Of a DNA stretch of 64,000 bases, positions 18,757-61,817 are shown piece after piece; position 1 is the first letter of the stretch; the number at the start of each line of letters is the position of its first letter. The position numbers and the translations under genes are program-made. The DNA lies in NCBI GenBank assembly GCA_045534635.1, contig JAZSKB010000051.1:4663-68662 (forward strand). The letters run 5' to 3'. The notes beneath the pieces are model-generated. The model saw only the letters and a program-made list of their open reading frames with translations. It had not been told where the DNA came from and made no database searches. Source of the stretch: Bacteroidales bacterium. GTDB taxonomy: Bacteria > Bacteroidota > Bacteroidia > Bacteroidales > WCHB1-69.

Positions 18757-18883
18757 CTATAATATTTATTCCAAAAAGTGTGATATTTTTGGCTTTGGTG
18801 GTTTGTAAACATGCAAGGAGATAGGCATTCAAGAAAAAATTTGCAAAACATTTTATAGTTTCTGTAAAAAATGTTATCTTTTT
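18757..18883 (+). repeat. Dispersed intergenic repeat, copy A (partner at 47492..47634)
   Basis: Long shared strings such as ATAGGC.TTCAAGAAAAAATT.GCAAAACATTTTA..GTTTCT.TAAAAAATG. The promoter box is decayed here (TATCTTTT). Confidence 0.7.
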
Positions 18884-29788: not shown

Positions 29789-29867
29789 GTGTAATCAACT
29801 CAAAAATAAATAAAACATTTATTATCAAATAATTATATATTTGTATCTATACAAAATACTCATTTTA

Positions 29868-29875
29868 CAAAGATA
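29868..29875 (-). promoter_or_regulatory. -7 box (TATCTTTG, minus strand) for ftsK
   Basis: Exact TAnnTTTG match ~80 nt upstream of the ftsK ATG. Confidence 0.45.
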
Positions 29876-30081
29876 ATTATTTGATATAATGAGATAATTC
29901 GCTCTAATTATAAATTGTAAACAACGGGGTGTTAATTAATAATGGATAAATACAAAGAGACAAGATACAAAATATTGTTTGTTGATGAGAGCAGATAGGA
30001 AAGATTTTCCAAGATAGACAATCCATTGGAAAAATTGTCAAAAGTATAGAAGAAAGTAGGTTTCGTATTAATTTTTTTTTG

Positions 30082-30089
30082 TATCTTTG
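30082..30089 (+). promoter_or_regulatory. -7 box (TATCTTTG) driving leader repeat copy 1 and gene 30210..31064
   Basis: Exact TAnnTTTG match directly 5' of the conserved leader. Confidence 0.5.
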
Positions 30090-30096
30090 CAAAATG

Positions 30097-30185
30097 AAAC
30101 AACCTTTTTGTTGTGGTTTAGATGGTTCTAAATGCAACCTCAGCTGTCAAAACTGCGGTAAAAGGTAAAGAAGTAAAAATTAGAG
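30097..30185 (+). repeat. Leader repeat R1, copy 1
   Basis: AAACAACCTTTTTGTTGTGGTTTAGATGG...CTCAGCTGTCAAAACTGCGGTAAAAGGTAAAGAAGTAAAAATTAGAG. It ends 25 nt before the ATG at 30210. Copies are at 36259 and 37967. Confidence 0.8.
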
Positions 30186-30209
30186 AGTACCAAAATACCA
30201 CAACCATTC

Positions 30210-31064
30210 ATGAAAGAACTATTTTTTTACATACGATTTGTCTTGTTGCTAATCCTCCCTTGTTTTTCCGCCAAAGCACAAACAGAACGCCACCCGCTTT
30301 GTGACAGTCTGTATAAACATTCGGGAACCTTCTCCGCCGACTCCTCCGTCTACAGTATGCGGATTGGCGACCGAACAATAGACTTCCCTTTATCGTTCAA
30401 AACATGGTGGGGACGAGCATATAGTGCTGAAACCACTTTCGTTGAAAATGGCACCATCTACATCTTCCGTGAGTACTCTTTTAATATTAATTTGGAGACA
30501 CCATGTATTTGCACATCTTTCTATTACATCATCCCTCACAAACATGCAGACCATCCTTCCCACCTGCAAAAAATGTTTTACCGCTGGGAAGACAGTACTT
30601 CATATTTCACCGAATCGGTCAATTACATCTATGAAGCGGGTGTAACGCTTGCACATAACAACTTAAGGGACATGCCACGACACTGGTACCCAATCAAAAA
30701 ATACGACGGAAAGTATTATCTCAGCATAGATTACCCCTATATGACCGAACTGTGCGACAGTGTTGAGGTATTTCACGGAATGGAACTATCCGTTTTACCC
30801 ATCCGGAATGTGTCGAAACAGGGCAACAATTACCATTATGAACTCTGTAACCTGTACGACAACAACAAGTGGTATCGTGTCACACTCTCTCCCTACCAGA
30901 ACAACAAAATGCTGTGGGTTCGCACCGTGGAAAATCCGGATGGAAAAATCAAAAAAGAATTAATGACGACGGAAAAACATGTCCAGCACTTCGACCTGAT
31001 AGAATGGGAATCCAGTGATCATATACCGAATGGACTTGAACACTATGACAAAATTGATTTTTAA
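30210..31064 (+). CDS. Hypothetical secreted protein (island cassette)
   Basis: 284 aa with signal peptide FVLLLILPCFSAKAQ. No domain recognised. GC-richer than the backbone. Confidence 0.55.
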   Translation: MKELFFYIRFVLLLILPCFSAKAQTERHPLCDSLYKHSGTFSADSSVYSMRIGDRTIDFPLSFKTWWGRAYSAETTFVENGTIYIFREYSFNINLETPCICTSFYYIIPHKHADHPSHLQKMFYRWEDSTSYFTESVNYIYEAGVTLAHNNLRDMPRHWYPIKKYDGKYYLSIDYPYMTELCDSVEVFHGMELSVLPIRNVSKQGNNYHYELCNLYDNNKWYRVTLSPYQNNKMLWVRTVENPDGKIKKELMTTEKHVQHFDLIEWESSDHIPNGLEHYDKIDF

Positions 31065-31101
31065 CAGATACATCTCCATAATAACCATTGTGAACTATAT
31101 T

Positions 31102-31132
31102 CTTTCATTATGTAAAAATAACATAATGAAAG
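31102..31132. terminator. Bidirectional hairpin between convergent island genes
   Basis: 11-bp perfect stem CTTTCATTATG/CATAATGAAAG. Confidence 0.55.
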
Positions 31133-31207
31133 TAATTGTTTTTGTCTTATCATTGCATATTGTTTATAAAAACATCTTTGACAAATCTTTTCACAATGGT
31201 GGTGTTG

Positions 31208-32128
31208 CTATCTATTGCGAATCTCTTCTTTGATATTTTTGTCACCGTATTTTTTTGCCTTTTTCAAATAAATCTCCTCTTTTTTCTTGTCACCTATACG
31301 ATTATACGCCTCTGCAATATTGAGTAACACCAACGCATCTCGTGGATTCGCTTCTTCTGCTCTTAACAACCACATCAAAGCGGAGTCTTCCTGCCCCATG
31401 ATATGATAGGTAGCCGCCATTATATTGAGACTAAAGACATCCTGCGGATATAGTCGCAACATACTTTGTGCAATGCTACGTATATAGCATATCTTCAAAG
31501 TATCTTGTATGGTCAGAGTATCAGAATTTGACAACGCATTATATAGTGTCTTCTCATAATCAAAAATTGAATATATCAGTATAGTGTCTATAGATTCAGT
31601 GATATTTGGATACTCCCATGCATTATTGTTTTTTTCAGCATGTTCAAGGGTTGACAGTATCTCATCTGTATAAGATTGCCATCGTCCGCTTTGGCTTAAT
31701 AGGTATATTTTCCCGAAACGCATGTCTAAACGGTCAGGATACCGTAGTATACCCTCTGAAATAATTAAAAGAGCGGAATCTGTCAAGAGGGAATCGTAAT
31801 ATTCCACACCATACATATATCCGGCAACATTCCCTATGCTGTCAGTCAAGGTGAACACTCCGGACACATCTATTCCTTCCGGAAGTTCTGTGGAAAGAAT
31901 AGGACCTTTTGAAACATGTGCCTTATTCACCCAATAATTGTATTCTGCAATGTAACGTTCTGCACTTTGGTCGTTACCGTAACGAATTTCGGACAATGTC
32001 TGCTCAATTGTAGCACTATCATTTTCACGCAAAGCTTTATAAAAGTTGTCATATACATTCTGAGCATCCGCGATTTCGCATGAAAAAGCATATAGCACTA
32101 CAACTACACTGATTATCAATTTTTTCAT
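31208..32128 (-). CDS. Hypothetical secreted TPR-like protein (island cassette)
   Basis: The start is taken at MKKLIISVVVVLYAFSC (32128), which lies downstream of the shared promoter. The C-terminal part looks like TPR helices (NIAEAYNRIGDKKKEEIYLKKA). Confidence 0.55.
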   Translation of the reverse strand: MKKLIISVVVVLYAFSCEIADAQNVYDNFYKALRENDSATIEQTLSEIRYGNDQSAERYIAEYNYWVNKAHVSKGPILSTELPEGIDVSGVFTLTDSIGNVAGYMYGVEYYDSLLTDSALLIISEGILRYPDRLDMRFGKIYLLSQSGRWQSYTDEILSTLEHAEKNNNAWEYPNITESIDTILIYSIFDYEKTLYNALSNSDTLTIQDTLKICYIRSIAQSMLRLYPQDVFSLNIMAATYHIMGQEDSALMWLLRAEEANPRDALVLLNIAEAYNRIGDKKKEEIYLKKAKKYGDKNIKEEIRNR

Positions 32129-32190
32129 AAATAAAAACATTAAAAATTTTGTAATTGCAAAAGTAATCAAAATTTTAAATACTGCCGATA
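32129..32190. repeat. Repeat R2, partial copy (promoter arm only) with minus-strand -7 box at 32158..32165
   Basis: CATAAATAAAAACATTAAAAATTTTGTAATTGCAAAAGTAATCAAAATTTTAAAT is nearly identical to 32974..33030. The minus strand carries TACTTTTG. Confidence 0.75.
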
Positions 32191-32199
32191 TATGCAAAA

Positions 32200-32973
32200 T
32201 CAAGGCAATTCATCCAGTTCAATGCTGACAACCGCGGTTTTTCCGCTGGACGAACCCACATATTTATAGACCAGATTACGGTTGGTGGCTTTAATGGTAC
32301 TAGTCAGACTTTGTGTTGTCACACCATTGACGACTAAATTCTCAATAATCCCTTTCTTCATTTCCGACAGATTATTATTCAAATTGTCAATATCAATAAC
32401 CGACTCATCGCATTCATATATGTAAACGAAACTTTTTTTATCCAACTGCACATCCTTAATCGTCAAGCCCCTGACCACTTCCATAGGAATTTGCATTTTC
32501 ACGTTGTCATAGACGGATTTCAGCAGCATTTCCGGATCGGCATCAGCTCCGGGCATGTTTGCTTTAAGCTCTTCAACAGTGAAGTATATACTGAAGTTCC
32601 TTTCTTTCCCGTCAATAAAAATCAACAGCAGATCCGCATTGGCCCTTATAACTGCTTCAAAAAGCTTTTTAAACGACTCGTTCTGATTATTGGCAAAACC
32701 TAAAAGTACATTGCTGCGCAAGGCGGCCTCATTTGAACGAAAGGAATCAAGATTCATCTGTCCTGCAACAACACCATAGGTTATTACAACCGTGTTATGC
32801 GAATAATCCATATTCTCAATCGACGTATACTCGTCCACCTGAATAGGGCATTCTTTCGCTACTTCTTTGATAATATTTTTAAGTTCCTTTTTGTTTTTTT
32901 GAACATTGCTGCCACATAAGACGTATGATAGCATCAAAGGCAACACAAGTATACTGATTATCAGTTTTTTCAT
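32200..32973 (-). CDS. Hypothetical lipoprotein (island cassette)
   Basis: 257 aa. MKKLIISILVLPLMLSYVLCG shares its first 7 codons with the gene at 31208..32128. Confidence 0.55.
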   Translation of the reverse strand: MKKLIISILVLPLMLSYVLCGSNVQKNKKELKNIIKEVAKECPIQVDEYTSIENMDYSHNTVVITYGVVAGQMNLDSFRSNEAALRSNVLLGFANNQNESFKKLFEAVIRANADLLLIFIDGKERNFSIYFTVEELKANMPGADADPEMLLKSVYDNVKMQIPMEVVRGLTIKDVQLDKKSFVYIYECDESVIDIDNLNNNLSEMKKGIIENLVVNGVTTQSLTSTIKATNRNLVYKYVGSSSGKTAVVSIELDELP

Positions 32974-33205
32974 AAATCAAAACATTGAAAATTTTGTAAT
33001 TGCAAAAGTAATCAAAATTTTAATTCTTAATAACTTTTCCTGTGAAAATTTTCCTTTGTTGCTTTATATCCGCAGTGGAATATATTCCGATTGGTTCGTC
33101 TCACAAGGACTGCTTTTTCAATTGCGGGAGGCAATATTCCGTGCATCTTTCCGTTATATAAAAATAACATTGGGAAACATCCATGCATAAAACAGGTTCA
33201 GTGCT
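32974..33205. repeat. Repeat R2, full copy a: divergent intergenic module (minus-strand -7 box at 33003..33010)
   Basis: Shares long identical strings with 35336..35630: GCAAAAGTAATCAAAATTTTAATT, TTCCTTTGTTGCTT, CCGATTGGTTCG.CTCACAAGGACT, CAATATTCCGTGCATCTTTCCGTTAT. Confidence 0.8.
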
Positions 33206-34201
33206 ATGAATATCAGAGACATCTTTGGTTTCCGCGAGCACCGGCACACGACGGAAAGATTGCGGCACGTGGCCTTCGGGCATGCCGCCACCGCCTGTGG
33301 TGCGATGGTGACGCTGGCTGCTTTCTATACATTATGGATACTGATCATGCATTGTACGATGGAGGACGATCCGCATCATCTCTTTGTCAAACAGATGAAG
33401 AGCGGCAACGTGGTCATAAAACGGCTCAACGCCTACCGCGACAGCTGCGGTGTTTTCCCGGAAGGTCTTGAAAGTATCGGCTTCCGTAAATTACACGGGG
33501 ATAACTTCTTCGGCGTCCAGAACCCCTTCTCTGTATATTATCACATTTTTGAGTATATCCGGCTGGACGACACCTCCTTCTATCTTGGATATGAGGATTG
33601 GTCTGGCGGAAGAGAACAATACTTGTCGTCCGAAGAACGGTGGCGGATGGTCATATATGGATGTGATGAGCATTCAGAAAGACTTCCTGACTACTATGAA
33701 GGTCGGGATGTTACTTCCGTCTATCTGCACGAATATGAAATAGCGGATCATCAGGACACCATACGGAAACTGCTGGAAACGCTTATAGATAACCGTAACG
33801 ATGCCGGACAGCAGTTCCTGCTGACGTTTTTCCACAGTTATGATACGGCATACAGCCATTTCTCCGAGGATTTCACATATAGGGAGGATACCGTTTATCG
33901 CATACGCCACAACAGCGTTTTACAAACATTTGACCTTTCGAAGCCTTATGCCTATCTGGACATGTTCAGCGATATTGACGGCTACCTTCTGATAAACGGG
34001 CATATCTGCTTTTTTTCTGATAGGTCATGGTATCCCATCGCTCGCCGAAGGCTGCATCAGACTGGCAGGGGACGGGTATTCACCGATCCTGTCAATTTAA
34101 AACCGAGCGTTGGCAACGACCAGTGCTGGTTTCTTGACATGGAGTTCCACTACTACGGTGGTAAAGCATCGCTACAGGGGACATGTATTCTTACATGGTA
34201 A
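33206..34201 (+). CDS. Hypothetical membrane-anchored protein (island cassette, most GC-rich segment)
   Basis: 331 aa with one N-terminal hydrophobic helix (MVTLAAFYTLWILIM). No domain recognised. Confidence 0.5.
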   Translation: MNIRDIFGFREHRHTTERLRHVAFGHAATACGAMVTLAAFYTLWILIMHCTMEDDPHHLFVKQMKSGNVVIKRLNAYRDSCGVFPEGLESIGFRKLHGDNFFGVQNPFSVYYHIFEYIRLDDTSFYLGYEDWSGGREQYLSSEERWRMVIYGCDEHSERLPDYYEGRDVTSVYLHEYEIADHQDTIRKLLETLIDNRNDAGQQFLLTFFHSYDTAYSHFSEDFTYREDTVYRIRHNSVLQTFDLSKPYAYLDMFSDIDGYLLINGHICFFSDRSWYPIARRRLHQTGRGRVFTDPVNLKPSVGNDQCWFLDMEFHYYGGKASLQGTCILTW

Positions 34202-34212
34202 AAAAATGCACG

Positions 34213-34410
34213 TCACCACGGCTGATGCTGTTGGAGAAAGATTTCCTTCACGCCATGTCTGGGGACCCCAATAAAATTCGGAAAAAAAACTCCCTTCATG
34301 GCGGATGATGTATGATTTCCCGTCCTGATGCACCCTTCAACTATGATAATCTTCTCCATTGGAGAGTTAAAATATTTTTTAAGAATTGATTGTATCTTTC
34401 TTTCAAGCAT
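34213..34410 (-). pseudogene. Possible N-terminal fragment of an AAA-type ATPase gene
   Basis: 65-aa ORF. MLERKIQSILKKYFNSPMEKIIIVEG.IRTG resembles the N-terminus (up to the P-loop position) of Bacteroidales AAA/DUF4143-type ATPases, but the P-loop is destroyed. Confidence 0.25.
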
Positions 34411-34459
34411 GGTCCGTCACATTTTCTATCCGATAAAAATACAACCTTTTCCGATTTTT

Positions 34460-35335
34460 TCATCCCTGACAGGCTTCGCAGAAACTGCTGGCGTTTTTGC
34501 GTAAATAAGCAACCAGCAACGCATCAATATTCTCTTCTTTATCTAAACGGGAAAATTTATCAACCAGATGAGACATTTTATTAAACATCGGATCCGATTC
34601 CTTCTCCTCCGTCCATTCGGTACAGCAGAAACGTTCGTTCTCCTCCGTCATAATTGTTTGCAACGCCTCCGCATGTTTCACAGCACCAATTTCACGATAG
34701 GCACGAATAAGAAGGTATTCTCCGTCAAAAGACTTCTTCCAACCTTCTCCTTCACAGACAATATTGTAGAAAATATCGATATAATAAAGGTAATAACATA
34801 TATCTTGCACGTGTTTATGTTCATCAGATAAATTTTTATCATAATGGAAATCGCTGCACCAATCTATAAGCTCCTCATCATAAAGGCTGTCAAACAGTTC
34901 GCGGGTCATACGGGGAAAGCGAGCAAGTTCGGCAGTTTTTTCAAACTGTTTCAAAATACTTGTTCTACGATAAAGATATATAGCTAACAACAGACAAGGA
35001 ATACTTCCGAAAAGCAGGGTTATCTTCAAAATGTCGAAACTACTGTATTTCTGCCAAATTTCCTCCAAACCCATTATAATGAATAGAAAAAATATTAATG
35101 GAATTAATGAAAAAAACAGCATAAGTGGAATATAGACCCACAGATTTAAACGCTCCCTCCGCCCTGTGGAACCAGTTGTGACTTCACAATAAGCGTAATG
35201 ACGTTTCGCACCGCAGTAGGGACAGGTACGCACAAACACCTCACCCTCTTTCTCTCGAATCTCATCCACCGTCTCATAACGGCCTTTGATAGGGATATGC
35301 TCTCCACACTTGCCGCAATTTACATAGTATTTCAT
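34460..35335 (-). CDS. Zinc-ribbon / two-TM protein with a DUF4375 (DMP19)-like C-terminal domain (island cassette)
   Basis: 291 aa. CGKCG...CPYCG zinc ribbon and two hydrophobic helices. The C-terminal helical domain tentatively resembles the DMP19/immunity-type fold. Confidence 0.5.
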   Translation of the reverse strand: MKYYVNCGKCGEHIPIKGRYETVDEIREKEGEVFVRTCPYCGAKRHYAYCEVTTGSTGRRERLNLWVYIPLMLFFSLIPLIFFLFIIMGLEEIWQKYSSFDILKITLLFGSIPCLLLAIYLYRRTSILKQFEKTAELARFPRMTRELFDSLYDEELIDWCSDFHYDKNLSDEHKHVQDICYYLYYIDIFYNIVCEGEGWKKSFDGEYLLIRAYREIGAVKHAEALQTIMTEENERFCCTEWTEEKESDPMFNKMSHLVDKFSRLDKEENIDALLVAYLRKNASSFCEACQG

Positions 35336-35630
35336 AACTTTATTTTTTAAATGGCAAAAGTAATCAAAATTTTAATTTTTTATAACTTTTCCTATGAAAT
35401 TTTTCCTTTGTTGCTTTTAATCTGTAGATGGGATATATTACCGATTGGTTCGCCTCACAAGGACTATTTTTTCAATAAAATAAACTTGCATTACGTTTTC
35501 TTCACTCATTCCACCTGCGTTTTTTCGGTTGCGGAACGCAATATTCCGTGCATCTTTCCGTTATGTAAGAAATAACATTTGGGAATATCCATAAAAAAAA
35601 CAGTATTAACAGTTTAAAGCAGATTCTATT
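35336..35630. repeat. Repeat R2, full copy b, with an internal ~55-nt insertion (minus-strand -7 box at 35355..35362)
   Basis: Same module as 32974..33205, plus extra sequence ATAAAATAAACTTGCATTACG...GGTTGCGGAACG between the two conserved arms. Confidence 0.8.
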
Positions 35631-36203
35631 ATGAAACAAATTATTCTACTCGTTGTCATTTTAATAATAGTCATTGCCATTCTGTTGCTGAAATTCAAAT
35701 TCCATTACCCTGATGTAACGAAAGATGCTTTTGTTGAAAAAAACAAATCAATGGAAAAAAGAGTGATTTTGATTGAAGAAATGAGTGAAGAACAATTGAA
35801 TGATGCCATTCATGAATTTATTGGCATGTACAAGGATAATATAGATATTTCTACTTTGGAAGAACCGCTTGTTACACGCTACGAAAAAGGATTTCTTCTC
35901 ACCTTTTCTGCAAACGTTGACTATGATTTGTTTTGCTTTTGGGTGAATTATCTTGTTTATTCCGATAAGGAACAGAAAGAAAGATATTCAGTTTACGGAT
36001 GGTATCCTTTCGGTGAAGTGGAACGTCAGAAAGAAACCATAAATTTCAGCGGTAAAACCATTATGCTTTACATTCCCAAAGAGGATGACGAATTTGATAA
36101 TGTGTATATAATTACACCTGACAATCAATATTATAAGAATGAGTTTGCTGGAACGACGAAGGCAATCTCCCCTCGTAAGGAACAATACCGCCTAAAACCT
36201 TAA
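35631..36203 (+). CDS. Hypothetical membrane-anchored protein (island cassette)
   Basis: 190 aa with N-terminal TM helix IILLVVILIIVIAILLL. Confidence 0.5.
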   Translation: MKQIILLVVILIIVIAILLLKFKFHYPDVTKDAFVEKNKSMEKRVILIEEMSEEQLNDAIHEFIGMYKDNIDISTLEEPLVTRYEKGFLLTFSANVDYDLFCFWVNYLVYSDKEQKERYSVYGWYPFGEVERQKETINFSGKTIMLYIPKEDDEFDNVYIITPDNQYYKNEFAGTTKAISPRKEQYRLKP

Positions 36204-36258
36204 TACCTCCGCATTCAAAAAGTGCAGTGATTCCCTTATTTTATACTGAATTTACGAT

Positions 36259-36347
36259 AAAACAACTCTTTTGTTGCGGTTTAGATAGTTTTATGTAACC
36301 TCGATTGTCAAAAACTGCGATGAAAGGAAAAAAATCGAAAATTAGAG
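36259..36347 (+). repeat. Leader repeat R1, copy 2
   Basis: AAACAACTCTTTTGTTGCGGTTTAGATAG...CTCGATTGTCAAAAACTGCGATGAAAGGAAAAAAATCGAAAATTAGAG. It ends 19 nt before the ATG at 36366. Confidence 0.75.
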
Positions 36348-36365
36348 GTTCCCAAAAATAAAATT

Positions 36366-36908
36366 ATGGCAAGAATAATAAAAATAACAAGGAGTTCATC
36401 TACAGGTTGGTGGGCATGGACAGCAGGAGATTGCTCTGGTTGGGCAAACTCAAAAAGAGAAGCAAGGCGACAAGCTAGAGAAGCTCTATCATCAGGAAAT
36501 TGTGATTGTGAAATAACTCCCCCAAACGGAGGTATTATCGTTAATAATAATTCATCAAATGAAGGAAATAGTACAATTTATTTCCCAGATACGAATGGAA
36601 AAATGAAGGAGTATCCTTTAGATGAAATAAATGAAAATACTGCTATGTGGTTGTTAGGTAGTTGTAATTATATAGAAGAAGACTCAACACCAGAAGAACG
36701 AGTTATTGCTCTTTTAAAAGTTTGGGATATTTATCAAGGAGATATAGTTTTATCTGATATTTTGGTAAATCATAATTTACAAGCAGAGGAATTTTATATT
36801 TTAGCCTCAAAAGAATGGAATTATATATTTATTAATATAGATAACGATGAAAACATTTCATGGACTTTTTCTGATACAGATCCTGATCCTGATTTTGGTA
36901 ACGAATAA
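36366..36908 (+). CDS. Hypothetical protein (island cassette)
   Basis: 180 aa, with no signal peptide and an acidic C-terminus. No domain recognised. Confidence 0.45.
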   Translation: MARIIKITRSSSTGWWAWTAGDCSGWANSKREARRQAREALSSGNCDCEITPPNGGIIVNNNSSNEGNSTIYFPDTNGKMKEYPLDEINENTAMWLLGSCNYIEEDSTPEERVIALLKVWDIYQGDIVLSDILVNHNLQAEEFYILASKEWNYIFINIDNDENISWTFSDTDPDPDFGNE

Positions 36909-37485
36909 TATATATGGGCAAACACCTTTCGGAACGGAAAAGGTAAAAAATGTTGACAATCTGTTTGTAGATTGTTCCGAAGTTACCAATATCAGTTGGA
37001 TGGAATACCTGTATTTCTTAAAGATCGAATACGGAGAAAATTCTCCGCAATATAAAGCTGCTGTTCCTGATACAACTTTGACCGGCTATTCTTTCAAACA
37101 TCCGACATACCGTAACTATCCTGTTGTGGGCATTACTTACGACCAAGCGTTAGCTTATGCCCGATGGCGAACCAAAGCTGCGAACATAATTTTGGAGCAA
37201 TCCAGCAAAAAATATCGTTATGAATATCTATTAGCTTCTGAAGAGGTTCTCCAACAAGCATTTTCACAACAAAAGAGCAAGTTGGGTCAATTGTCGGCAC
37301 TGCAAGCCGTAACATCAAAAAAAATGGTACATATTGATGACAATGCCAAAGAAATCACTTCCGACAAAACCATTGTTATCGGTGCTCAAGGAGAGCAATT
37401 GACATTTGAACCCTATCAAAAACCAGACGCTGCAACAAGTTTCCGTTGTATGGCAAGAGTTGTCAAATGTGTAAAAACGAAATAA
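36847..37485 (+). CDS. Short FGE-sulfatase/SUMF1-fold protein with signal peptide (island cassette)
   Basis: 212 aa. Contains EVTNISWMEY, YPVVGITYDQALAYARWR and a C-terminal SFRCMARV, typical of the formylglycine-generating-enzyme fold. Its 5' 62 nt overlap the preceding ORF. Confidence 0.55.
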   Translation: MKTFHGLFLIQILILILVTNNIYGQTPFGTEKVKNVDNLFVDCSEVTNISWMEYLYFLKIEYGENSPQYKAAVPDTTLTGYSFKHPTYRNYPVVGITYDQALAYARWRTKAANIILEQSSKKYRYEYLLASEEVLQQAFSQQKSKLGQLSALQAVTSKKMVHIDDNAKEITSDKTIVIGAQGEQLTFEPYQKPDAATSFRCMARVVKCVKTK

Positions 37486-37487
37486 GT

Positions 37488-37514
37488 AAGGGAGAAAAGA
37501 CAATCTCCCTTTTA
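37488..37514 (+). terminator. Hairpin terminator after the FGE-fold gene
   Basis: 8-bp stem AAGGGAGA/TCTCCCTT followed by TTTATAATT. Confidence 0.55.
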
Positions 37515-37920
37515 TAATTGATATTCAAAATGGTGATGAAGAAAGCCGCGAAAAGAATAAGATAAAGACACAACGCCCTCACCGAAAAGCATTCAACAGA
37601 CTAGGCATTATTAACTATTGTACCCGACACGTAGGGAGAATTAACTGTGAGCGATTATTATTTTTATCTATCTTCCGATAATGATGATTGGGGAATTGTA
37701 TTCTCAATTAGTGAATTAACCGAGTGGAAAATGATGAGGAAATAAATGAACAAGAACATCTTTAACACCAAAATCAACGACCAGAACACTTACTTTGGAA
37801 ACTTGCCCGATAGTACATGCTAGAAAAGAAATAATTTGCCTATGACACGTTTTGACATAGATGTGTTTTAATTTTGCAGCACAAAATGCAAAAAACTGAT
37901 TATCATAATTATTTTTTATG

Positions 37921-37928
37921 TATATTTG
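37921..37928 (+). promoter_or_regulatory. -7 box (TATATTTG) in front of leader repeat copy 3
   Basis: Exact TAnnTTTG match ~40 nt upstream of the conserved leader core. Confidence 0.45.
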
Positions 37929-37966
37929 CAGATTGAAAATATTGCAGTTTCAGTTTTAAAGGGAAT

Positions 37967-38013
37967 CTCAGCTGTCAAAAACTGCGGTAAAAGGAAAAAA
38001 GTAAAAATTAGAG
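37967..38013 (+). repeat. Leader repeat R1, copy 3 (3' core only, no downstream gene)
   Basis: CTCAGCTGTCAAAAACTGCGGTAAAAGGAAAAAAGTAAAAATTAGAG. It runs straight into a hairpin instead of a start codon. Confidence 0.75.
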
Positions 38014-38029
38014 ATAACCTCTAATTTTT
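38003..38029. terminator. Bidirectional hairpin at the right island boundary
   Basis: Stem AAAAATTAGAG/CTCTAATTTTT with loop ATAAC. Its left arm is the end of leader copy 3. Confidence 0.55.
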
Positions 38030-38412
38030 ATACCTTTGCTTCTAAAAAAAGTATCAATGGTTTTGCCACTTTTTTAAAAGAATTACATGGAATATCATAT
38101 TTCATACCATAAAAACCTTTATGTCCATATTTTGCAACCATTAAAGACATTCCTGTTTTAATTCCAGATAGATAGGTAACCTTTTCAATTTCATTATAAA
38201 AGATTCTTTTTCTTCGATGAAATATTCGCGTCAGAAAAAAAACTTCATAATATTCATCATAAAAATAAAAAATACGAAAAATGAATATAAAATATTAAAC
38301 CTATATAAATACTCAATGGTAGGTAGAATTTATTTATACATAAAACAAATAATGGTAGTACCAATTGTAATGTAATTACATTTCCCCAGTCAATACCAAC
38401 TTTTATTTTCAT
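38028..38412 (-). pseudogene. Possible frameshifted small membrane protein gene (two TM helices plus a bacterial-PH-like tail)
   Basis: The ATG at 38412 opens ~50 codons (MKIKVGIDWGNV...). The +1 frame continues ...YNEIEKVTYLSGIKTGMSLMVAKYGHKGFYGMKYD... to a stop at 38028. The junction lies in T-runs. Confidence 0.3.
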
Positions 38413-38493
38413 TTTTTAGTAATTTTTTACTATACAAAATTTTAAATCAAAGAAAGGAATTTTGAGAAGAAAGAGAATTTTTTGAGATATAAA

Positions 38494-43088: not shown

Positions 43089-44078
43089 ATGGAAGAGAAT
43101 AAGATTATTATCTATCAAACGGAGGACGGACAGACACAGATTGATGTCCGAATGGAGAATGAGACCGTGTGGCTGACGCAGGCTCAGATGGCAGAATTGT
43201 TTCAGACAGACCGCACATCAATCGTTCGTCACATCAATAACATTTATAAGGTGGAAGAACTTGACAGAGAATCAACCTGTGCAAAAATTGCACAAGTTCA
43301 AATTGAGGGCAAAAGAACGGTAAAACGAAGTGTTCCATATTTCAATTTGGACATGATTATTTCTGTGGGTTATCGTGTTAATTCCAAACGAGGTGTTAAG
43401 TTTCGTCAGTGGGCAAACCGTATTTTGAAAGATTACCTCGTCAAAGGCTATGCCGTACACGATCGCATCCGCAAGGAGCAGATTGGCGAGTTGCGGCAAC
43501 TGGTTGGGATGCTTGGACGTACGATGCAAAGCCAGTCGTTGCTATCCAATGACGAAACGAATGCTTTGTTTGAGGTAGTCACCGATTATACCTACGCCCT
43601 CGACACGCTCGACAACTATGACTACGAGCGACTGACCATTGACAAGACCACCAAAGAAGAGCCTTTCCACGCCACATACGAGAATGCGATGAAAGAGATT
43701 CGCTTGTTGCGTGAAAAGTTTGGTGGCTCGGTACTCTTTGGTAACGAGAAGGACGACTCGTTCAAAAGCTCGATTGGACAGATTTACCAGACTTTCGGAG
43801 GCGAGGAACTCTACCCGAGTGTGGAGGAAAAAGCCGCAATGTTGCTGTATTTGGTAACCAAAAACCACTCGTTCAGCGACGGCAACAAACGCATTGCAGC
43901 GACGCTTTTCCTGTGGTTCCTCAACAATAACCGCATCCTCTATCGCCAAGATGGTTCCAAACGCATTGCCGACAACACCCTCGTCGCTCTAACCCTGATG
44001 ATTGCCGAGAGCAAAACGGAGGAGAAAGATGTGATGGTGAAGGTGGTAGTGAATTTGATTAACCAGGAAAATCAATAA
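43089..44078 (+). CDS. RhuM-family protein with a C-terminal Fic/Doc domain
   Basis: N-terminus IIIYQTEDGQTQIDVRMENETVWLTQAQMAELF...ISVGYRVNS is typical of RhuM. The C-terminal motif HSFSDGNKRIAA matches the Doc-type HxFxDxNKR core. Confidence 0.8.
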   Translation: MEENKIIIYQTEDGQTQIDVRMENETVWLTQAQMAELFQTDRTSIVRHINNIYKVEELDRESTCAKIAQVQIEGKRTVKRSVPYFNLDMIISVGYRVNSKRGVKFRQWANRILKDYLVKGYAVHDRIRKEQIGELRQLVGMLGRTMQSQSLLSNDETNALFEVVTDYTYALDTLDNYDYERLTIDKTTKEEPFHATYENAMKEIRLLREKFGGSVLFGNEKDDSFKSSIGQIYQTFGGEELYPSVEEKAAMLLYLVTKNHSFSDGNKRIAATLFLWFLNNNRILYRQDGSKRIADNTLVALTLMIAESKTEEKDVMVKVVVNLINQENQ

Positions 44079-44081
44079 ACA

Positions 44082-44136
44082 CGTAAAAATCAATATTTAT
44101 GGTTTTGTGCTTAAAAAGTTGTAATTTTGCGGCGGA
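44082..44136 (+). repeat. Promoter segment, copy 2 (contains the -7 box TAATTTTG at 44123..44130), upstream of mcrB-like gene
   Basis: Direct repeat of 42966..43029, starting 4 nt after the rhuM stop codon. Confidence 0.7.
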
Positions 44137-44226
44137 GTTTTCTTGTTGAGATTCATTTGAAAGATTTGATAGAGAATGAATTGATATTTGCAAATTCATA
44201 TTTATTTGAACAATTAATAGTATATT

Positions 44227-46068
44227 ATGGACAACATTCGTTATTGGACCTTTAAACACAAACCGGGAGAAAAAGCTAATGAGGATAAGTGCAAGGAACT
44301 TATTTTACAAGCTGTTCGAAACAATTATGTTTTTATGCAATATGAGTATGGCTTTGAAGACACACGAAAGGTAACACAAAATTGGAATAGAGTGCGAAAA
44401 GTATCAGAAGGTGACGTTATTTTTCTCAGAGGTGATAAAAACATATATGCCTATGGTTATGCCATACGACCTCGGTTGGAAGCTGATATAAAATTAAAAA
44501 TGCAAGACATTATTGACAATAAAGATCATGGGAAATATAACTCTTCCGATTTTTGCGGAATAATACATTTTGAAGACTCTGATGTTTTCTATGAGAACTT
44601 AGATGGCGAAGAAAATTGGGGGCAAAGGATTGATGTGGATTCTTGGCGATTGTATTATGAGAATGGAATACCTGCGCAATCGCAAGATTTATACCAACAA
44701 GGAGAAAATGAATATGGCGTATTGAAAGAATTAAAACCAGAAAAAGGTAAGGAAATAATTAATGAACTTTATAATTATTTAGGAATGAAAGGAGATGTAT
44801 TATCATTGTTAAAAACAAATCACAATCTCATTCTCACCGGTGCTCCGGGAACAGGGAAAACCTATTTGGCAAAACAGGTTGCGAGACTATTGCTTTTTGG
44901 AAAAACAAATGAAAATGAACTTAATGATGTTGAACGAAAACAATTCAACGAACAATATGGTTTCGTCCAATTTCACCCGAGTTATGACTATACTGACTTT
45001 GTAGAGGGCTTAAGGCCTATGCAAGATGAAACTGGTAATGTTGGGTTTGAACGCAAAGACGGCGTTTTTAAGGCTTTTTGCAAAAAAGCTGTATCATTGC
45101 CAAAAAATGACACCATAGACAATTTCAACGAAACGTGGGATAAGTTGGTTGCCACATTAAATGAAAACAATTACATTGATGTTCCATTTTTAAGCAATAA
45201 GAGTAAAAGTTTCAGAGTAGAACTTAATGAGTATGGAACAGGATTGGCAAACCGAACTTATCCAAATGACATATACGAGCAAGGTGGATGGATTTCAGGA
45301 CAGTCCAAGTTTTTCAGCAAAGACCAATTGTATAACATATATAGGGGACTGCCCGGTGTGCCTTCAGGCGGACACGATAATTATCGACGTGCAATTGTCG
45401 AAGAAATGAAAAAAAGTTTGGGATTGAAGCCTTATAAAGAAGGTAATTCTGTGGAGAAATCTGATAAAAACTTTGTCTTCATCATCGACGAAATCAACCG
45501 TGGTGAAATCTCCAAGATTTTTGGAGAATTGTTCTTTTCTATAGATCCAGGATACCGTGGAAAAGAAAAGGGAAAAATAAAAACTCAATATCAAAATCTT
45601 ATTGAGCAAGGGGATGTATTTTATGATGGTTTTTATGTCCCCGAAAACGTCTATATCATTGGTACCATGAACGACATCGACCGCAGCGTGGAGAGCATGG
45701 ACTTTGCTTTCCGCCGGAGATTTGCGTTCAAGGAAATCAAAGCTATAGACAGAGTTGAAATGCTCTATGACAGCAATAATGGAATTGAAAACTACGCAGA
45801 CGAGGCAAAAGAACGAATGAGCCGGCTCAACGAGGAGATTGAAAGAATTGAAGGTCTTTCTACCGCTTATCACATTGGTCCCGCTTATTTTCTTAAATTG
45901 AAAAACTACGATGGCAGCTTCCAAGATTTATGGGACAACCATTTGGAAGGACTTTTGAAGGAATATATGCGTGGAATGCAAGGTGTTGAAGATAAGATAA
46001 AAACTCTGAAAGAGGCTTATAATAACCCCAAAGCAACAAATACAGGTGATGCGGATGAAAATCTATGA
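44227..46068 (+). CDS. mcrB: McrB-family AAA+ GTPase restriction subunit with an N-terminal PUA/EVE-like reader domain
   Basis: 613 aa. Walker A is LTGAPGTGKT, Walker B is FVFIIDEINRG, and the McrB signature is IIGTMNDIDRS plus FAFRRRF. The N-terminal ~190 aa (IRYWTFKHKPG...) look like a PUA-fold modified-base reader. Confidence 0.85.
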   Translation: MDNIRYWTFKHKPGEKANEDKCKELILQAVRNNYVFMQYEYGFEDTRKVTQNWNRVRKVSEGDVIFLRGDKNIYAYGYAIRPRLEADIKLKMQDIIDNKDHGKYNSSDFCGIIHFEDSDVFYENLDGEENWGQRIDVDSWRLYYENGIPAQSQDLYQQGENEYGVLKELKPEKGKEIINELYNYLGMKGDVLSLLKTNHNLILTGAPGTGKTYLAKQVARLLLFGKTNENELNDVERKQFNEQYGFVQFHPSYDYTDFVEGLRPMQDETGNVGFERKDGVFKAFCKKAVSLPKNDTIDNFNETWDKLVATLNENNYIDVPFLSNKSKSFRVELNEYGTGLANRTYPNDIYEQGGWISGQSKFFSKDQLYNIYRGLPGVPSGGHDNYRRAIVEEMKKSLGLKPYKEGNSVEKSDKNFVFIIDEINRGEISKIFGELFFSIDPGYRGKEKGKIKTQYQNLIEQGDVFYDGFYVPENVYIIGTMNDIDRSVESMDFAFRRRFAFKEIKAIDRVEMLYDSNNGIENYADEAKERMSRLNEEIERIEGLSTAYHIGPAYFLKLKNYDGSFQDLWDNHLEGLLKEYMRGMQGVEDKIKTLKEAYNNPKATNTGDADENL

Positions 46069-47389
46069 CAATACTACTCGTAAATTGTCGGAAGAGGAAA
46101 TCTCATCGGCAAAACCAGACCTTGAGCGAATTGCCAATATAAAAATTGGCGAACTATCCTTGGAAGACAATCCTAACCTTTTGGTCTTTCCAAGGGATTT
46201 GCACCGTTATGGCGATGAAATCAGTGAGAACTGTATAATCTCTATGCGTGATGATGATATCTCCACGGGAAACATTATGGGTTTTGTGGGAGTGAACGAC
46301 ACACAATTGGATATCAAATCGCGTTTTGCCAAAGTGGACGAGGATGACTATTTCCTTCATTATATGCTCCAGAAAGTTTTTTCTATCAACCTGTTCGATA
46401 TAAAACACACAACCCGACAAGAGGACATTTTCGATTTTCTTCTATATCTGTTTCCTCACTTCTTGAAGAAGGCACTTGCACAGGGACTGTTCAAAAAATA
46501 CAGAAGATTTGAATACAACGATGCCAACATTCGGGGACCGATAGACGTAAATCGGCATATCCACGAAAATATTCCTTTCCGAGGAACTGTCGCCTATTCC
46601 ACACGCGAGCACAGCTATGACAACGAAGTTACGCAGCTGGTCCGCCACACCATAGAATACATCCGCACCAAAGAGCACGGGGCCATCATTTTGAACAATG
46701 ACCCAGAAACTAGAAGTTGCATCACGCAAATCACTCTTGCAACGCAATCGTACAATGTGCGGGAACGTATGAAAGTCATCAACCCAAACCTGCGTCCCAT
46801 ATGCCATCCCTACTTTTCGGCATACACCGACATCCAAAGCCTTTGCCTTCGAATCCTCCGCCACGAATCTCTCAAATACGGACAGGAAAAAGACAAAGTT
46901 TATGGCGTTTTGTTCGATGGGGCTTGGCTGTGGGAGGAGTATTTGAATACGATTTTGAAAAAATGTGGTTTCAAACATCCTGAAAACAAAAAACAAAAAG
47001 GTGGTTTTCGGATGTTTAAAAATGAGTTGGACGATGATGCAATCAGCAAAAATAGTCGTCGTTTATATCCCGACTTTTGGAAAAATGACTTCATTCTCGA
47101 TGCCAAATACAAGCGCCTAAACAATGGTGTTGCACGCGAAGATTTGTATCAGGTAGTTTCGTATATGTATAGTACGAAGTCTAATAATGGAGGTTTTGTA
47201 TATCCGTCTGAAACAAAGCAAGATACAATCAATTATCATTTAGCTGGCTACGGTGGCATTATGCACATCATTGGTTTACATGTTAGCCATGGTGTCTCTG
47301 ATTTTAAAGAATATGTCAAAAGAATGAAAGAGTCTGAAAGTCGGCTTATTGCGACGGCGAGCGACTTGAAAACGAAAAAAACGCTGTAG
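46049..47389 (+). CDS. mcrC: McrC-family restriction endonuclease subunit
   Basis: ~446 aa, overlapping the mcrB stop. PD-(D/E)xK-type motif YPDFWKNDFILDAKYK lies near the C-terminus. Confidence 0.8.
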   Translation: MRMKIYDNTTRKLSEEEISSAKPDLERIANIKIGELSLEDNPNLLVFPRDLHRYGDEISENCIISMRDDDISTGNIMGFVGVNDTQLDIKSRFAKVDEDDYFLHYMLQKVFSINLFDIKHTTRQEDIFDFLLYLFPHFLKKALAQGLFKKYRRFEYNDANIRGPIDVNRHIHENIPFRGTVAYSTREHSYDNEVTQLVRHTIEYIRTKEHGAIILNNDPETRSCITQITLATQSYNVRERMKVINPNLRPICHPYFSAYTDIQSLCLRILRHESLKYGQEKDKVYGVLFDGAWLWEEYLNTILKKCGFKHPENKKQKGGFRMFKNELDDDAISKNSRRLYPDFWKNDFILDAKYKRLNNGVAREDLYQVVSYMYSTKSNNGGFVYPSETKQDTINYHLAGYGGIMHIIGLHVSHGVSDFKEYVKRMKESESRLIATASDLKTKKTL

Positions 47390-50135: not shown

Positions 50136-50150
50136 TGGCACGCTTTTTGC
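50136..50150 (+). promoter_or_regulatory. Sigma-54 -24/-12 promoter (TGGCACGCTTTTTGC) for paralog 1
   Basis: Canonical GG-N10-GC spacing, 40 nt upstream of the ATG at 50190. Confidence 0.6.
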
Positions 50151-50189
50151 TATCATTTTTAGTGAAGATAATTTTAAATAAATAATGTT

Positions 50190-50930
50190 ATGAAAAAAAT
50201 TGTATTTTTCTTGTCAATGATATTTGCATTATCGACTTTATTTTCTTCGTGTACAGTGTATCATCCTCAATCCGTTGATATTCCTCTTATTCGACACCAA
50301 AATGATTTACAAGTAGAAGGGGCTATTTCTATTTCTCCTTATCCTTATTCATCACCTACATTAAACGCTACTGCAACTTATAGTTTTAATAAATGGGGAG
50401 CAGTTCAAGCACATATAAATACTGATGGTTATACAGAACTTTATTTACAAACGGCTTTTGGTAGTTATCTCCCTATAAAACAACATTACGTAATAGAAGG
50501 TTATGCAGGTTATGGATTATGGGGTAGTAGAAAATCTGAAGCTTATGAATTATGGGATAGTAATGAACCTGAACCTTCTGGAATATATCATTGTCCTTTT
50601 TTACAATTTAACACTGGCTGGGTTGGACTTGCAAAAGAACATATTGATGTTGGTTTTGGGTTAAAAACAGGTTGTTTGATTAGCAAATATAGAGAAATAT
50701 CATCTAGTAGCTATACTTTAGAAGGAAATATTTATCAATCCATAGAGTTTAATGATTTTATAAATTATGCTCCATTGATAGAACCACAAGTTTTTATTCG
50801 ATTTGGAGGAAAAAAATTAAAAGGTTCATTACGAGTTAGTTATTGTACATTTTTGGGCATGGAGAATTTTGTTTATTTTCCTGCAAATATTAGCATAGGA
50901 ATTTCCTACAAATTTGAATTTAAAAGATAA
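50190..50930 (+). CDS. Lipoprotein paralog 1 (predicted beta-rich outer-membrane protein)
   Basis: 246 aa. Lipobox LFSSC. It shares framework blocks with the two downstream paralogs. Confidence 0.65.
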   Translation: MKKIVFFLSMIFALSTLFSSCTVYHPQSVDIPLIRHQNDLQVEGAISISPYPYSSPTLNATATYSFNKWGAVQAHINTDGYTELYLQTAFGSYLPIKQHYVIEGYAGYGLWGSRKSEAYELWDSNEPEPSGIYHCPFLQFNTGWVGLAKEHIDVGFGLKTGCLISKYREISSSSYTLEGNIYQSIEFNDFINYAPLIEPQVFIRFGGKKLKGSLRVSYCTFLGMENFVYFPANISIGISYKFEFKR

Positions 50931-50952
50931 TTTTTTTCATTAAAAGTACTTT

Positions 50953-50967
50953 TGGCACGCTTTTTGC
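50953..50967 (+). promoter_or_regulatory. Sigma-54 -24/-12 promoter (TGGCACGCTTTTTGC) for paralog 2
   Basis: Identical motif, 40 nt upstream of the ATG at 51007. Confidence 0.6.
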
Positions 50968-51006
50968 TATCATTTTTAGTGAAGATAATTTTAAATAAAT
51001 AATGTT

Positions 51007-51702
51007 ATGAAAAAGATTGTATTTTTTTTGTCAATGCTATTTGCATTATCGGCTTTATTTTCTTCGTGTACAGTGTATCACTCACAAGCCGTAGATATTC
51101 CACTTATTCGACATCAAAATGATTTACAAATAGAAGGAGCGATTTCTTCTACTTATATAGGAGCTCCAGCAATAAATACTACTGCAACTTATAGTTTTAA
51201 TAAATGGGGAGCAGTTCAAGGACATATCAATTGGAATGGTTACATGGATTTTTATTTACAAACAGCGTTTGGTAGTTATCTCCCGATAAAACAACATTAC
51301 GTAATAGAAGGATATGTAGGGTATGGATTATGGATAAGTCCAGAAGAATATGGAATATATCATAATCCTTTCTTACAATTTAATACTGGTTGGGTTGGTC
51401 TTGCAAAAGAACATATTGATGTTGGATTTGGATTAAAAACTAGTTGTTTGATTAACTTTTTTTCCACAACTACTAACAATATATTTTTTAAAGACCCCAC
51501 TTCACCGTTTGAAATACAAACTACTTTTAGAGAATTTTCACCATTGATAGAACCACAAGTTTTTATTCGTATTGGTAATAAAAAATTAAAAGGCTCATTA
51601 CGAATAGGTTGCTGTGCAGTTTTATTAGGGACAGCAGCAATTGATTATGTTCCTGTAAACGTTAGTATCGGTATTTCTTACAAATTTGAATTTAAAAGAT
51701 AA
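51007..51702 (+). CDS. Lipoprotein paralog 2
   Basis: 231 aa with the same signal peptide/lipobox and framework. Confidence 0.65.
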   Translation: MKKIVFFLSMLFALSALFSSCTVYHSQAVDIPLIRHQNDLQIEGAISSTYIGAPAINTTATYSFNKWGAVQGHINWNGYMDFYLQTAFGSYLPIKQHYVIEGYVGYGLWISPEEYGIYHNPFLQFNTGWVGLAKEHIDVGFGLKTSCLINFFSTTTNNIFFKDPTSPFEIQTTFREFSPLIEPQVFIRIGNKKLKGSLRIGCCAVLLGTAAIDYVPVNVSIGISYKFEFKR

Positions 51703-51724
51703 TTTTTTTTATTAAAAGTACTTT

Positions 51725-51740
51725 TAGCACGCTTTTTTGC
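51725..51740 (+). promoter_or_regulatory. Degenerate sigma-54-like motif (TAGCACGCTTTTTTGC) before paralog 3
   Basis: GG is changed to AG, and one extra T makes the spacing N11 instead of N10. Confidence 0.35.
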
Positions 51741-51779
51741 TATTATTTTTAGTGAAGATAATTTTAAATAAATAATGTC

Positions 51780-52499: not shown

Positions 52500-52568
52500 T
52501 TTTTTTCATTGAAAATAAATTTTTTTTGCAAATACAAATATAATGCTTTTATTATTAAAAAAAAATGA

Positions 52569-61744: not shown

Positions 61745-61817
<73 letters not shown>

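Follow-up and report, generated by a model that had tools for sequence, protein, structure and literature searches.

Why do unrelated genes at one chromosomal site share the same leader, and what might that leader do there? The question is raised by a 64,000-nucleotide (nt) stretch of a Bacteroidales genome (assembly GCA_045534635.1, contig JAZSKB010000051.1, positions 4,663 to 68,662; hereafter the window), in which an earlier note, made from the letters alone, had described a conserved leader in three copies placed before unrelated start codons. We followed this element, here called E, through the window, through other strains of the same species and through other Bacteroidales lineages. E probably serves as a ready-made expression adaptor and joining place for new genes. 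The explanation that we favour, with confidence about evenly poised for and against, is that E is a portable promoter and structured 5' untranslated region (5' UTR) that also anchors recombination. The anatomy and boundaries of E, its variation among strains, its independence of the genes that follow it (the cargo) and the mosaicism of its copies are shown by the sequences compared.

A sharply bounded repeat between ftsK and rnfA

E is a discrete unit of ~95 nt. Its limits were set by aligning the copies together with their flanks, and a profile search and a covariance model agree on them. In the window the copies lie between ftsK and rnfA, in the following arrangement.

29789-38493: hypervariable hotspot bounded by the start codon of ftsK (29788, minus strand) and the stop codon of rnfA (38494, minus strand)
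29789-30095, plus strand: conserved ftsK-proximal flank A, 95% identical to the empty allele, carrying the promoter of copy 1
30082-30089, plus strand: -7 box TATCTTTG of copy 1, inside flank A
30096-30191, plus strand: E copy 1 (c1), 89 bits with nhmmer and 102 bits with the covariance model
30210-31064, plus strand: cargo 1, a 284-amino-acid (aa) predicted secreted protein of unknown function, from the list of open reading frames (ORFs)
36259-36353, plus strand: E copy 2 (c2), the most diverged copy of the window, with only a degenerate promoter box upstream
36366-37485, plus strand: cargo 2, an overlapping pair encoding a 180-aa protein (36366-36908) and a 212-aa FGE-sulfatase-like protein (36847-37485)
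37921-37928, plus strand: -7 box TATATTTG of copy 3, of the TAnnTTTG type
37936-38019, plus strand: E copy 3 (c3), 69.9 bits with the covariance model, no cargo gene downstream
38002-38030: perfect 12-bp inverted repeat TAAAAATTAGAG / CTCTAATTTTTA, built from the tails of c3 and E'
38007-38089, minus strand: E', a degenerate inverted copy of E (covariance model with filters off, 24.2 bits, E-value 0.0027), whose 19-mer tail matches the minus strand
38290-38493: conserved rnfA-proximal flank X, 99.6% identical to the empty allele, in which it directly follows E

The three copies reported by the earlier note are thus present in the window, and the 25 and 19 nt that it had counted to two start codons are right when measured from the ends it had assigned. 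The repeat it described is real, and the unit proves longer and sharply bounded (c1 30096-30191, c2 36259-36353). Copy 3 had been under-described as sharing just the 3' half, and can be aligned over 37936-38019 behind its own TATATTTG promoter box. Its 5' arm is diverged, still alignable and still pairing. A 23-nt core, a 27-nt 5' motif and the 19-nt tail were never matched in 100 shuffles of the window that preserved its dinucleotides. Over 97 aligned columns, c1 shares 76% identity with c2, and more in a 47-nt core; its identity to the copy of the empty allele is 86.6%. The closest pair is c1 and the strain copy L035b, which are 96.9% identical over 96 nt and precede different genes (the 284-aa cargo and a bPH_1 cargo, respectively). 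When the covariance model R1 was run over the window with filters off and over 25 loci, the sole extra copy was the inverted one at 38007-38089.

E' stands tail to tail with c3 and opens an insertion, Y, at 38020-38289. This tail-to-tail arrangement recurs in the alleles L031 and L035. The c3 allele itself is also found in L031, and a c3-type 5' arm joins another 3' flank in L037. The inverted repeat at 38002-38030 resembles a bidirectional terminator because a T-run follows it, and the fold of 37933-38036 has z = -4.46. A plus-strand promoter-like box, TACCTTTG-N6-AAAA, is found directly after the c3 hairpin at 38031-38048, within E'.

Strain alleles differ immediately after E

Contigs of the same species were retrieved by exact look-up of the RnfA protein of the window and then of LolA. 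In the other strains (loci L030-L039 and L048-L056), ftsK and rnfA lie 0.6-1.5 kb apart with differing content between them; the gap is 8.7 kb in the window and ~600 nt in strains that we call empty. The cargo downstream of E therefore differs among strains of one species, a comparison that the earlier note had proposed.

Alleles L032 and L038 (empty): gap of ~600 nt with one E
Allele L030: E, a Peptidase_M50 gene, E
Alleles L033 and L035: E, a bPH_1 gene, E
Allele L031: the right part of the arrangement in the window
Window allele: gap of 8.7 kb with three direct copies of E

Comparison of the empty allele with the other alleles by blastn shows that all insertions begin right after E, at position 434/435 of the empty allele. 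The segment duplicated on the far side also ends at 434/435, and its upstream reach varies, from 116 nt in L030 to 250 nt in both L033 and L035. Each insertion brings one further copy of E, with its predicted promoter, on the far side of its cargo, and arrays therefore read E-cargo-E-cargo-E.

The 3' edge of E consists of ...AAAATTAGAG and a hexamer whose last two bases are always CC (TTAGAG-NNNNCC), beyond which the flanks diverge. This edge is identical in at least seven independent contexts, drawn from five cargoes of this species, its flank X and three loci of other lineages (L002, L004, L042). The start codon follows 12-50 nt past the edge. In c1 the tail reads GAGAGTACC at 30183-30191, preceded by an A-rich linker at 30163-30182.

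Many short-read contigs of the species end ~180 nt upstream of ftsK (~183 nt in L050, L051, L054 and L055), as expected for a locus that is repeated and variable. In contigs of sister species (RnfA 81-90% identical, L040-L047), ftsK does not lie beside rnfA, and E is absent except for a divergent relative elsewhere in L042. Two small ORFs touch the rnfA side of the locus. One encodes a hydrophobic protein of 45-51 aa (MKIKVGIDWGNVITLQLVLPLF...) on the same strand as rnfA and 80 nt downstream of it (38257-38412, minus strand; ~1400-1540 in the empty allele L032). In empty strains it runs into the 3' end of E, and E transcripts would therefore be antisense to it. The other, of 19 codons (MVGRIYLYIKQIMVVPIVM), lies on the plus strand of flank X and starts 26 nt after E.

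The leader belongs to the site and not to the cargo

The genes found downstream of E encode a secreted protein, an S2P-like protease, a bPH domain protein, a PD-(D/E)XK nuclease and small membrane proteins. Some cargo has weak matches to the conflict-system families DMP19 and FGE-sulfatase-like, and PADLOC returned nothing convincing when used for anti-phage defence content. A terminator-like hairpin follows cargo 2 at 37488-37511.

The 284-aa cargo has 21 homologue clusters at 66-99% identity, with 66-77% for homologues in other species; an exact look-up of the protein found no record. In nine loci of other species (L059-L067) its homologues have a different upstream leader and no E. Likewise, in L068-L070 the pair of 180-aa and FGE-like genes stands behind an ordinary promoter and a short leader, and E is absent. 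The fetched homologues of both window cargoes thus lack E, and we reject the idea that E spreads linked to its cargo. Because homologues of the cargo carry other leaders elsewhere, E belongs to the site and not to the genes.

In its other species (L059-L067) the 284-aa family occupies a variable region of its own with Bro-N, HicA, AAA_14/DUF4143 and a faint Imm33 match. This region adjoins PNP_UDP_1 and DJ-1 genes and resembles another accessory-gene hotspot.

E-like leaders in other Bacteroidales lineages

The window, with 32% GC, has the look of Bacteroidales DNA, and the closest named relatives of its RnfA come from Bacteroidales and Lentimicrobiaceae metagenome-assembled genomes (MAGs). 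E-like leaders occur before other genes in three other Bacteroidales lineages: before a gene for a 69-aa membrane protein in L002 (rumen MAG RGIG8187), before a gene for a zinc-ribbon membrane protein in L004 (rumen MAG RGIG8104) and, as a divergent relative, before a PD-(D/E)XK nuclease gene in L042. L002 and L004 are 79-81% identical to c1 and c2, a level similar to that between c1 and c2, and their flanks are unrelated. In L002, E lies in an island of 35% GC within a genome of ~49% GC.

A scan with an 18-base degenerate core pattern over one genome per GTDB species gave 13 matches, about the number expected by chance, of which only L002 and L004 are real. All 16 matches in a scan of JGI metagenomes were chance matches, and three IMG/VR scans and blastn searches against plasmids and phages gave no real match. 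A wide distribution of E is hence rejected on the genome, metagenome, virus, plasmid and phage searches, with the proviso that the counts are underestimates because assemblies tend to break at E; the contig of L004, for instance, stops 300 nt past its copy.

With further copies in hand, we asked whether E is a known kind of element. The Rfam comparison that the earlier note had suggested gave no family: in cmscan against Rfam 15 over the whole window at gathering thresholds, only a tRNA was found (61745-61817), and a permissive scan of 29800-38300 (E-value at most 10) gave three chance-level matches of 17-19 bits against thresholds of 51-75. A known RNA family is rejected on both scans. The terminus of an insertion sequence (IS) or miniature inverted-repeat transposable element (MITE) is rejected as well: E lacks terminal inverted repeats, no target duplication is seen in the flanks, and the copies are direct repeats confined to one locus. 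The two findings that the earlier note had named as fatal to its idea, an absence of further copies and an IS or MITE end, thus did not materialise. E is not a coding gene or leader peptide either, as six-frame translations of seven copies give stops in all frames. Indels among copies are not multiples of three, and an ATG overlapping the start of E is found only with the ftsK-proximal promoter type.

A predicted promoter at the 5' edge

The 5' edge of E lies just downstream of a predicted promoter. A TAnnTTTG box, which we take to be the Bacteroides -7 promoter element (Bayley, Rocha and Smith 2000), lies 6-7 nt before the first conserved base of E in c1, c3, L002, L030 and L033, with the near-match TTACTTTG in L004. 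Matches to TANNTTTG-N6-RAAA number 8 in the window versus 3.4 expected and include the one at 30082 and the promoter of the rnf operon. E is therefore predicted to begin at the transcription start of a Bacteroidetes sigma-A type promoter (TAnnTTTG).

A candidate hairpin and pseudoknot in the leader

RNA folding suggests a long, U/G-rich hairpin with many G·U pairs in its arms, which is the minimum-free-energy structure in L032, c2, L002 and L030. Positions within E are numbered on c1 (n = window position - 30095), with the hairpin arms at 12-32 and 47-67.

30107-30127 and 30142-30162, plus strand: hairpin arms of c1, from RNA folding
30128-30141, plus strand: apical loop of c1, containing GCAACCUC at 30134-30141; loop motif GYAAYCUC

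Folding gives z-scores near -2 in L032, c2 and L002, with weaker values in others, and RNAalifold recovers the long hairpin. The complementarity of the arms exceeds that of shuffled arm-flanking segments in c2, L032 and L002 (P = 0.003-0.0045). The same holds for the divergent L042 (P = 0.005), in which the arms differ in sequence and the loop and tail are the same. Moreover, the substitutions of the c3-type arm all keep pairing. The loop is complementary to the tail GAGGUURC (88-95) across an A-rich linker of 17-20 nt, so that an H-type pseudoknot is possible. This loop-tail pairing is perfect over 8 bp in one variant of the window species and in L042, which differ by a C-G to U-A double change.

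In the model-based alignment, 95.3% of the cells of hairpin and pseudoknot are paired. Five pairs are changed on both sides, a number reached by none of 500 column shuffles; the covariation score was reached by 2 of 500, and sliding the partners against each other lowers pairing to 38-50%. A nested alternative, in which the tail pairs with CAACCUU at 5-11, scores similarly to the pseudoknot. The cells of the hairpin contain 86 G·U versus 2 A·C, and folding of single-stranded DNA with DNA parameters (both strands, three copies) gave z = +0.2 to +1.6, no better than shuffles. Any structure would therefore be specific to the sense transcript. Taken together, these data partly bear out a hairpin with a loop-tail pseudoknot in the transcribed leader, as modelled.

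The two small hairpins that the earlier note had drawn fared worse. They are not kept in the wider set of copies and compete with the better-conserved longer hairpin. Its second hairpin is disrupted in the common variant ...TCTCATGTAATC..., and the first is missing from c3 and L002. Given this variation among copies we reject them as a conserved structure; they might form only as an alternative conformer. The earlier note's main idea, a portable leader and/or recombination site reused for various cargo, is supported: cargo differs among strains, cargo homologues lack E, and E-like leaders precede other genes elsewhere. The hairpins that it proposed are not supported.

E copies recombine

The copies of E are mosaics and recombine with one another. 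All four gametes are present for the loop variant combined with the GGTAAAAGG/GATGAAAGG variant. Four hexamers follow TTAGAG (GTTGCC, GTTCCC, AGTACC and ATAACC), and the body of E can change without the hexamer parting from the cargo behind it (c2 versus L031, c3 versus L035a and L037). The hexamer is thus linked to the cargo and not to the body of E, which places the exchange points inside E and 5' of the hexamer.

A proposed expression adaptor and its weak points

These observations can be joined in the following explanation. Foreign accessory genes of low GC content gather in the gap between ftsK and the rnf operon, where E reads towards rnfA. Each captured gene is fused to the exact 3' edge of a copy of E, 12-25 nt ahead of its start codon, and E would give a promoter and a common leader to genes arriving without suitable expression signals. 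The direct repeats that result would be substrates for homologous recombination, by which cassettes could be added, deleted and reshuffled and the copies homogenised. Bacteroidota largely do without Shine-Dalgarno-based initiation. A 5'-terminal hairpin with an A-rich single strand behind it would make the mRNA more stable and/or load ribosomes, and E could place all cargo under one post-transcriptional control. Transcription would then proceed from the consensus promoter, the leader would act on stability, translation or regulation, and recombination would follow the pathway outlined here.

Several points weigh against this explanation. The transcription start is a prediction from the promoter consensus, and c2 lacks a good -7 box and has a degenerate one only. 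The folding z-scores are modest (-0.5 to -2.3), the tail pairs with two different partners, and the c1 tail GAGAGTACC pairs poorly with either. Most changes at paired positions are one-sided (U·G to U-A and similar). The 13 aligned sequences amount effectively to four lineages (effective sequence number of the model, 1.58), the structure was derived from the same sequences on which it was tested, and the alignment was fitted to the model. Regarding the cargo, the segment 30210-36203 holds six genes in both orientations, with those at 31208-32973 and 34460-35335 on the opposite strand, and is no tidy one-gene cassette; nor does the cargo share a function that would point to one regulatory signal. 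Finally, plain homologous recombination alone does not account for cargo joining at one nucleotide. The nucleotide-precise 3' junction of the independent fusions, and the joining of the inverted copy E' at that same place, are predicted neither by homologous recombination nor by random promoter capture (PMC6614815). A site-specific process is a real rival for the origin of this junction.

Alternative explanations

First, E might primarily be a DNA site for a recombinase encoded elsewhere, similar to an integron attC site or to the sites of rAID elements, with promoter and leader as secondary passengers; circular cassettes would be inserted and excised at a core close to TTAGAG|GTTGCC. This possibility, which we regard as being on the unlikely side, would explain why the 3' junction is sharp and invariant across at least seven independent fusions and why the inverted copy is attached there too. 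The hexamer ending in CC segregates with the cargo as the bases after the crossover do in the core site of integrons, unrelated short low-GC genes form arrays with a ~100-nt repeat between them, and their homologues elsewhere lack the repeat. Furthermore, the ends of E (...AAC and GTT...) pair as CAACC/GGTTG, with a compensatory TAACC/GGTTA in L004, and the rAID-1 arrays of Bacteroidales have conserved intergenic motifs reminiscent of integrons (10.1101/471110; PMC12247911). However, no recombinase domain was found in the ORFs of 29789-38493 or among the Pfam domains precomputed for L030 and L048 (20 kb each), so that no such gene is seen in or beside the hotspot there. An attC site needs a stable folded strand, whereas single-stranded E DNA folds no better than shuffles (z = +0.2 to +1.6) and the helices depend on G·U (86 versus 2 A·C). 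The ends of E match the 7-nt R''/R' boxes (RYYYAAC/GTTRRRY) at just 4-5 positions (AAACAAC 5/7, GTTGCCA 4/7), and only CAACC/GGTTG pair. E comes with a promoter box of its own and begins where transcription is predicted to start. The varying upstream reach of the duplicated segment (116 or 250 nt) differs from what a fixed att site predicts, both gene orientations occur between c1 and c2, and integrons are almost absent from Bacteroidetes (PMC9024848).

Second, E might have no function beyond its promoter, the repeats being by-products of repeated promoter capture and the RNA fold a chance product of AT-rich sequence. Duplications and deletions mediated by microhomology would place a resident promoter before genes newly acquired. 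Capture of promoters by deletion or tandem duplication with microhomology has been shown experimentally for transferred genes (PMC6614815), and the variable upstream reach of the duplicated segment would suit duplication events. In addition, the folding z-scores are weak in several copies, and at the site of the c1 junction the cargo's native leader reads GTAACC, like the E tail GTTRCC, which is reminiscent of microhomology. Yet each fusion contains the whole 95-nt leader with the same 3' edge and not the promoter alone, and the leader is 79-81% conserved in two other species between unrelated flanks. Random deletions should leave variable remnants of flank X, of which none were seen. The arms are significantly complementary in two lineages of divergent sequence, and the c3-type arm substitutions all preserve pairing. 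We therefore consider this explanation distinctly unlikely.

Third, E might be a riboswitch-like sensor of a ligand, temperature or protein, with alternative pairings as its conformations and the cargo in one regulon. The tail has mutually exclusive partners in CAACC (5-9) and GCAACCUC (39-46), besides the small hairpins discussed above, and TGTCAAAA and AAAATTAGAG are highly conserved and unpaired across species. A long, marginally stable helix rich in G·U also resembles RNA thermometers. However, the genes downstream are functionally unrelated, which is not how metabolite riboswitches behave, and the structured part stops 12-50 nt before the AUG and leaves it uncovered. A terminator/anti-terminator pair is absent except at the cargo-less c3, and no Rfam family matches. 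With modest support for the structure and functionally unrelated genes behind it, E was not assigned to the riboswitches, and we hold a sensor to be very improbable. Slightest of all is the chance that E is a stand-alone small-RNA gene at whose 3' end islets insert as at tRNA and tmRNA genes, with incidental read-through as the cargo leader: every insertion is at the 3' end of E, no conventional gene follows E in empty strains or c3, and the strong terminator-like hairpin of c3 would give a ~95-nt RNA, but the inserted segments lack an integrase, the right-hand repeats are full promoter and E units and not 3' fragments as in att duplication of the tRNA type, the empty allele has no terminator after E and has the 19-codon ORF starting 26 nt downstream, and in L002, L004 and L042 the element lies directly before ORFs at unrelated loci.

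Comparison with known systems

Putative mobile promoters (PMPs) are highly similar non-coding stretches (identity of at least 80% across 50 nt or more) upstream of non-homologous genes (Matus-Garcia, Nijveen and van Passel 2012; PMC3575422). They are sometimes common to several taxa, mostly lack an Rfam match, and their mechanism of movement is unknown (PMC3575422). With 96.9% identity between c1 and L035b before unrelated cargoes, E falls within this operational definition, and we therefore file it as a PMP with a candidate new RNA motif. Unlike PMPs, however, E is predicted to be mostly transcribed leader and not the promoter region at -150 to -50. It is also concentrated at one chromosomal hotspot, its 3' junction is precise to the nucleotide, and it has a candidate RNA fold that would be conserved.

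Like the attC arrays of integrons (e.g. the repeats of Vibrio cholerae), the locus combines unrelated short ORFs, a sharply bounded repeat of ~100 nt and strain-variable content. Homologues of the cargo likewise occur elsewhere without the repeat, and the bases after the junction move with the cassette. In contrast to integrons, the E array has no adjacent integrase and is bounded by ftsK and rnfA, and its repeat carries a predicted promoter and sits 5' of each gene as a leader, with mixed gene orientation. No stable hairpin forms on either strand, and E is rejected as an attC site on its single-stranded DNA folding energies. Membership in the integrons is also rejected: no IntI-type tyrosine recombinase is found in the array or in L030 and L048, and the cassettes are not co-oriented and have promoter boxes in their repeats.

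In rAID-1, a XerD-like tyrosine recombinase heads a co-oriented array (10.1101/471110; PMC12247911). E and rAID-1 come from the same order (Bacteroidales) and share short, low-GC, horizontally acquired genes, conserved intergenic motifs and poor metagenome assembly. They differ in that the E array lies between ftsK and rnfA, lacks a recombinase at both ends, has mixed orientation and shows no clear immunity domains. Despite the low GC content of its genes, the array is therefore not placed with rAID-1, in view of the absent terminal recombinase and the mixed gene orientation.

A further likeness is to leaders that act at the 5' end of the mRNA as stabilisers or ribosome standby sites, such as the 5' UTR hairpin of E. 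coli ompA and the A-rich regions of Shine-Dalgarno-independent initiation in Bacteroidetes. The predicted hairpin of E similarly begins within a few nt of the predicted 5' end and is followed by an A-rich single strand before the start codon. Unlike ompA-type leaders, the hairpin of E is much longer and may form a pseudoknot with the tail.

Other repeats and accessory genes in the window

Between c1 and c2, a second repeated leader ("leader 2") of ~170-230 nt, 87-92% identical in blocks, is found at 32985-33208 and 35337-35633, upstream of two genes (33206 and 35631) that are unrelated to each other. In other species (L059, L064, L066), the native leader of the 284-aa family contains the leader 2 motif GCAATATT(T)CCG...CGTTAT as well. 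An 84-nt repeat of 92% identity (32095-32178 and 32940-33023) comprises promoter, leader and first codons (signal peptide MKKLIIS...) of 31208-32140 and 32200-32973, two neighbouring genes on the minus strand. This repeat and leader 2 make up a divergent promoter block, which is repeated at 35344-35427.

Outside the hotspot, a defence cluster lies just past the rnf operon (43089-47389), with a RhuM/Fic-domain protein followed by a McrBC-type pair (AAA_5 GTPase-like subunit and McrC). Three tandem paralogous lipoprotein genes of 231-246 aa without a Pfam match occupy 50144-52534, where repeats in coding and intergenic DNA share 71-89% identity. The 50-nt sequence TTTATTCCAAAAAGTGTGATATTTTTGGCTTTGGTGGTTTGTAAACATGC occurs at 18765-18814 and 55710-55759; the two intergenic copies are inverted and 37 kb apart, and their arms are 90% complementary.

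Significance

How newly acquired genes are switched on is poorly understood, especially in Bacteroidota with their non-textbook promoters and translation signals. At the locus described here, natural accessory genes from different sources are fused at one nucleotide to the same promoter and leader, in combinations that vary by strain. The locus also accounts for the breaking of metagenome assemblies of the species just upstream of ftsK.

If E does confer mRNA stability or translation, as in the explanation that we favour, it would offer a plug-and-play expression part for the engineering of Bacteroidales and a new structured RNA motif beyond those in Rfam. A bolder possibility, which we rate as rather doubtful, is a previously undescribed integron-like platform for gene capture in Bacteroidales, in which one ~95-nt module would combine attachment or crossover site, promoter and pseudoknotted leader. 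The cut at TTAGAG|NNNNCC would then be made either by a structure-directed nuclease or by a recombinase whose gene lies elsewhere, and any captured ORF would at once be expressed and co-regulated. If the precise junction reflects such a dedicated enzyme, the locus would represent an integron-like system in a phylum that is nearly without integrons.

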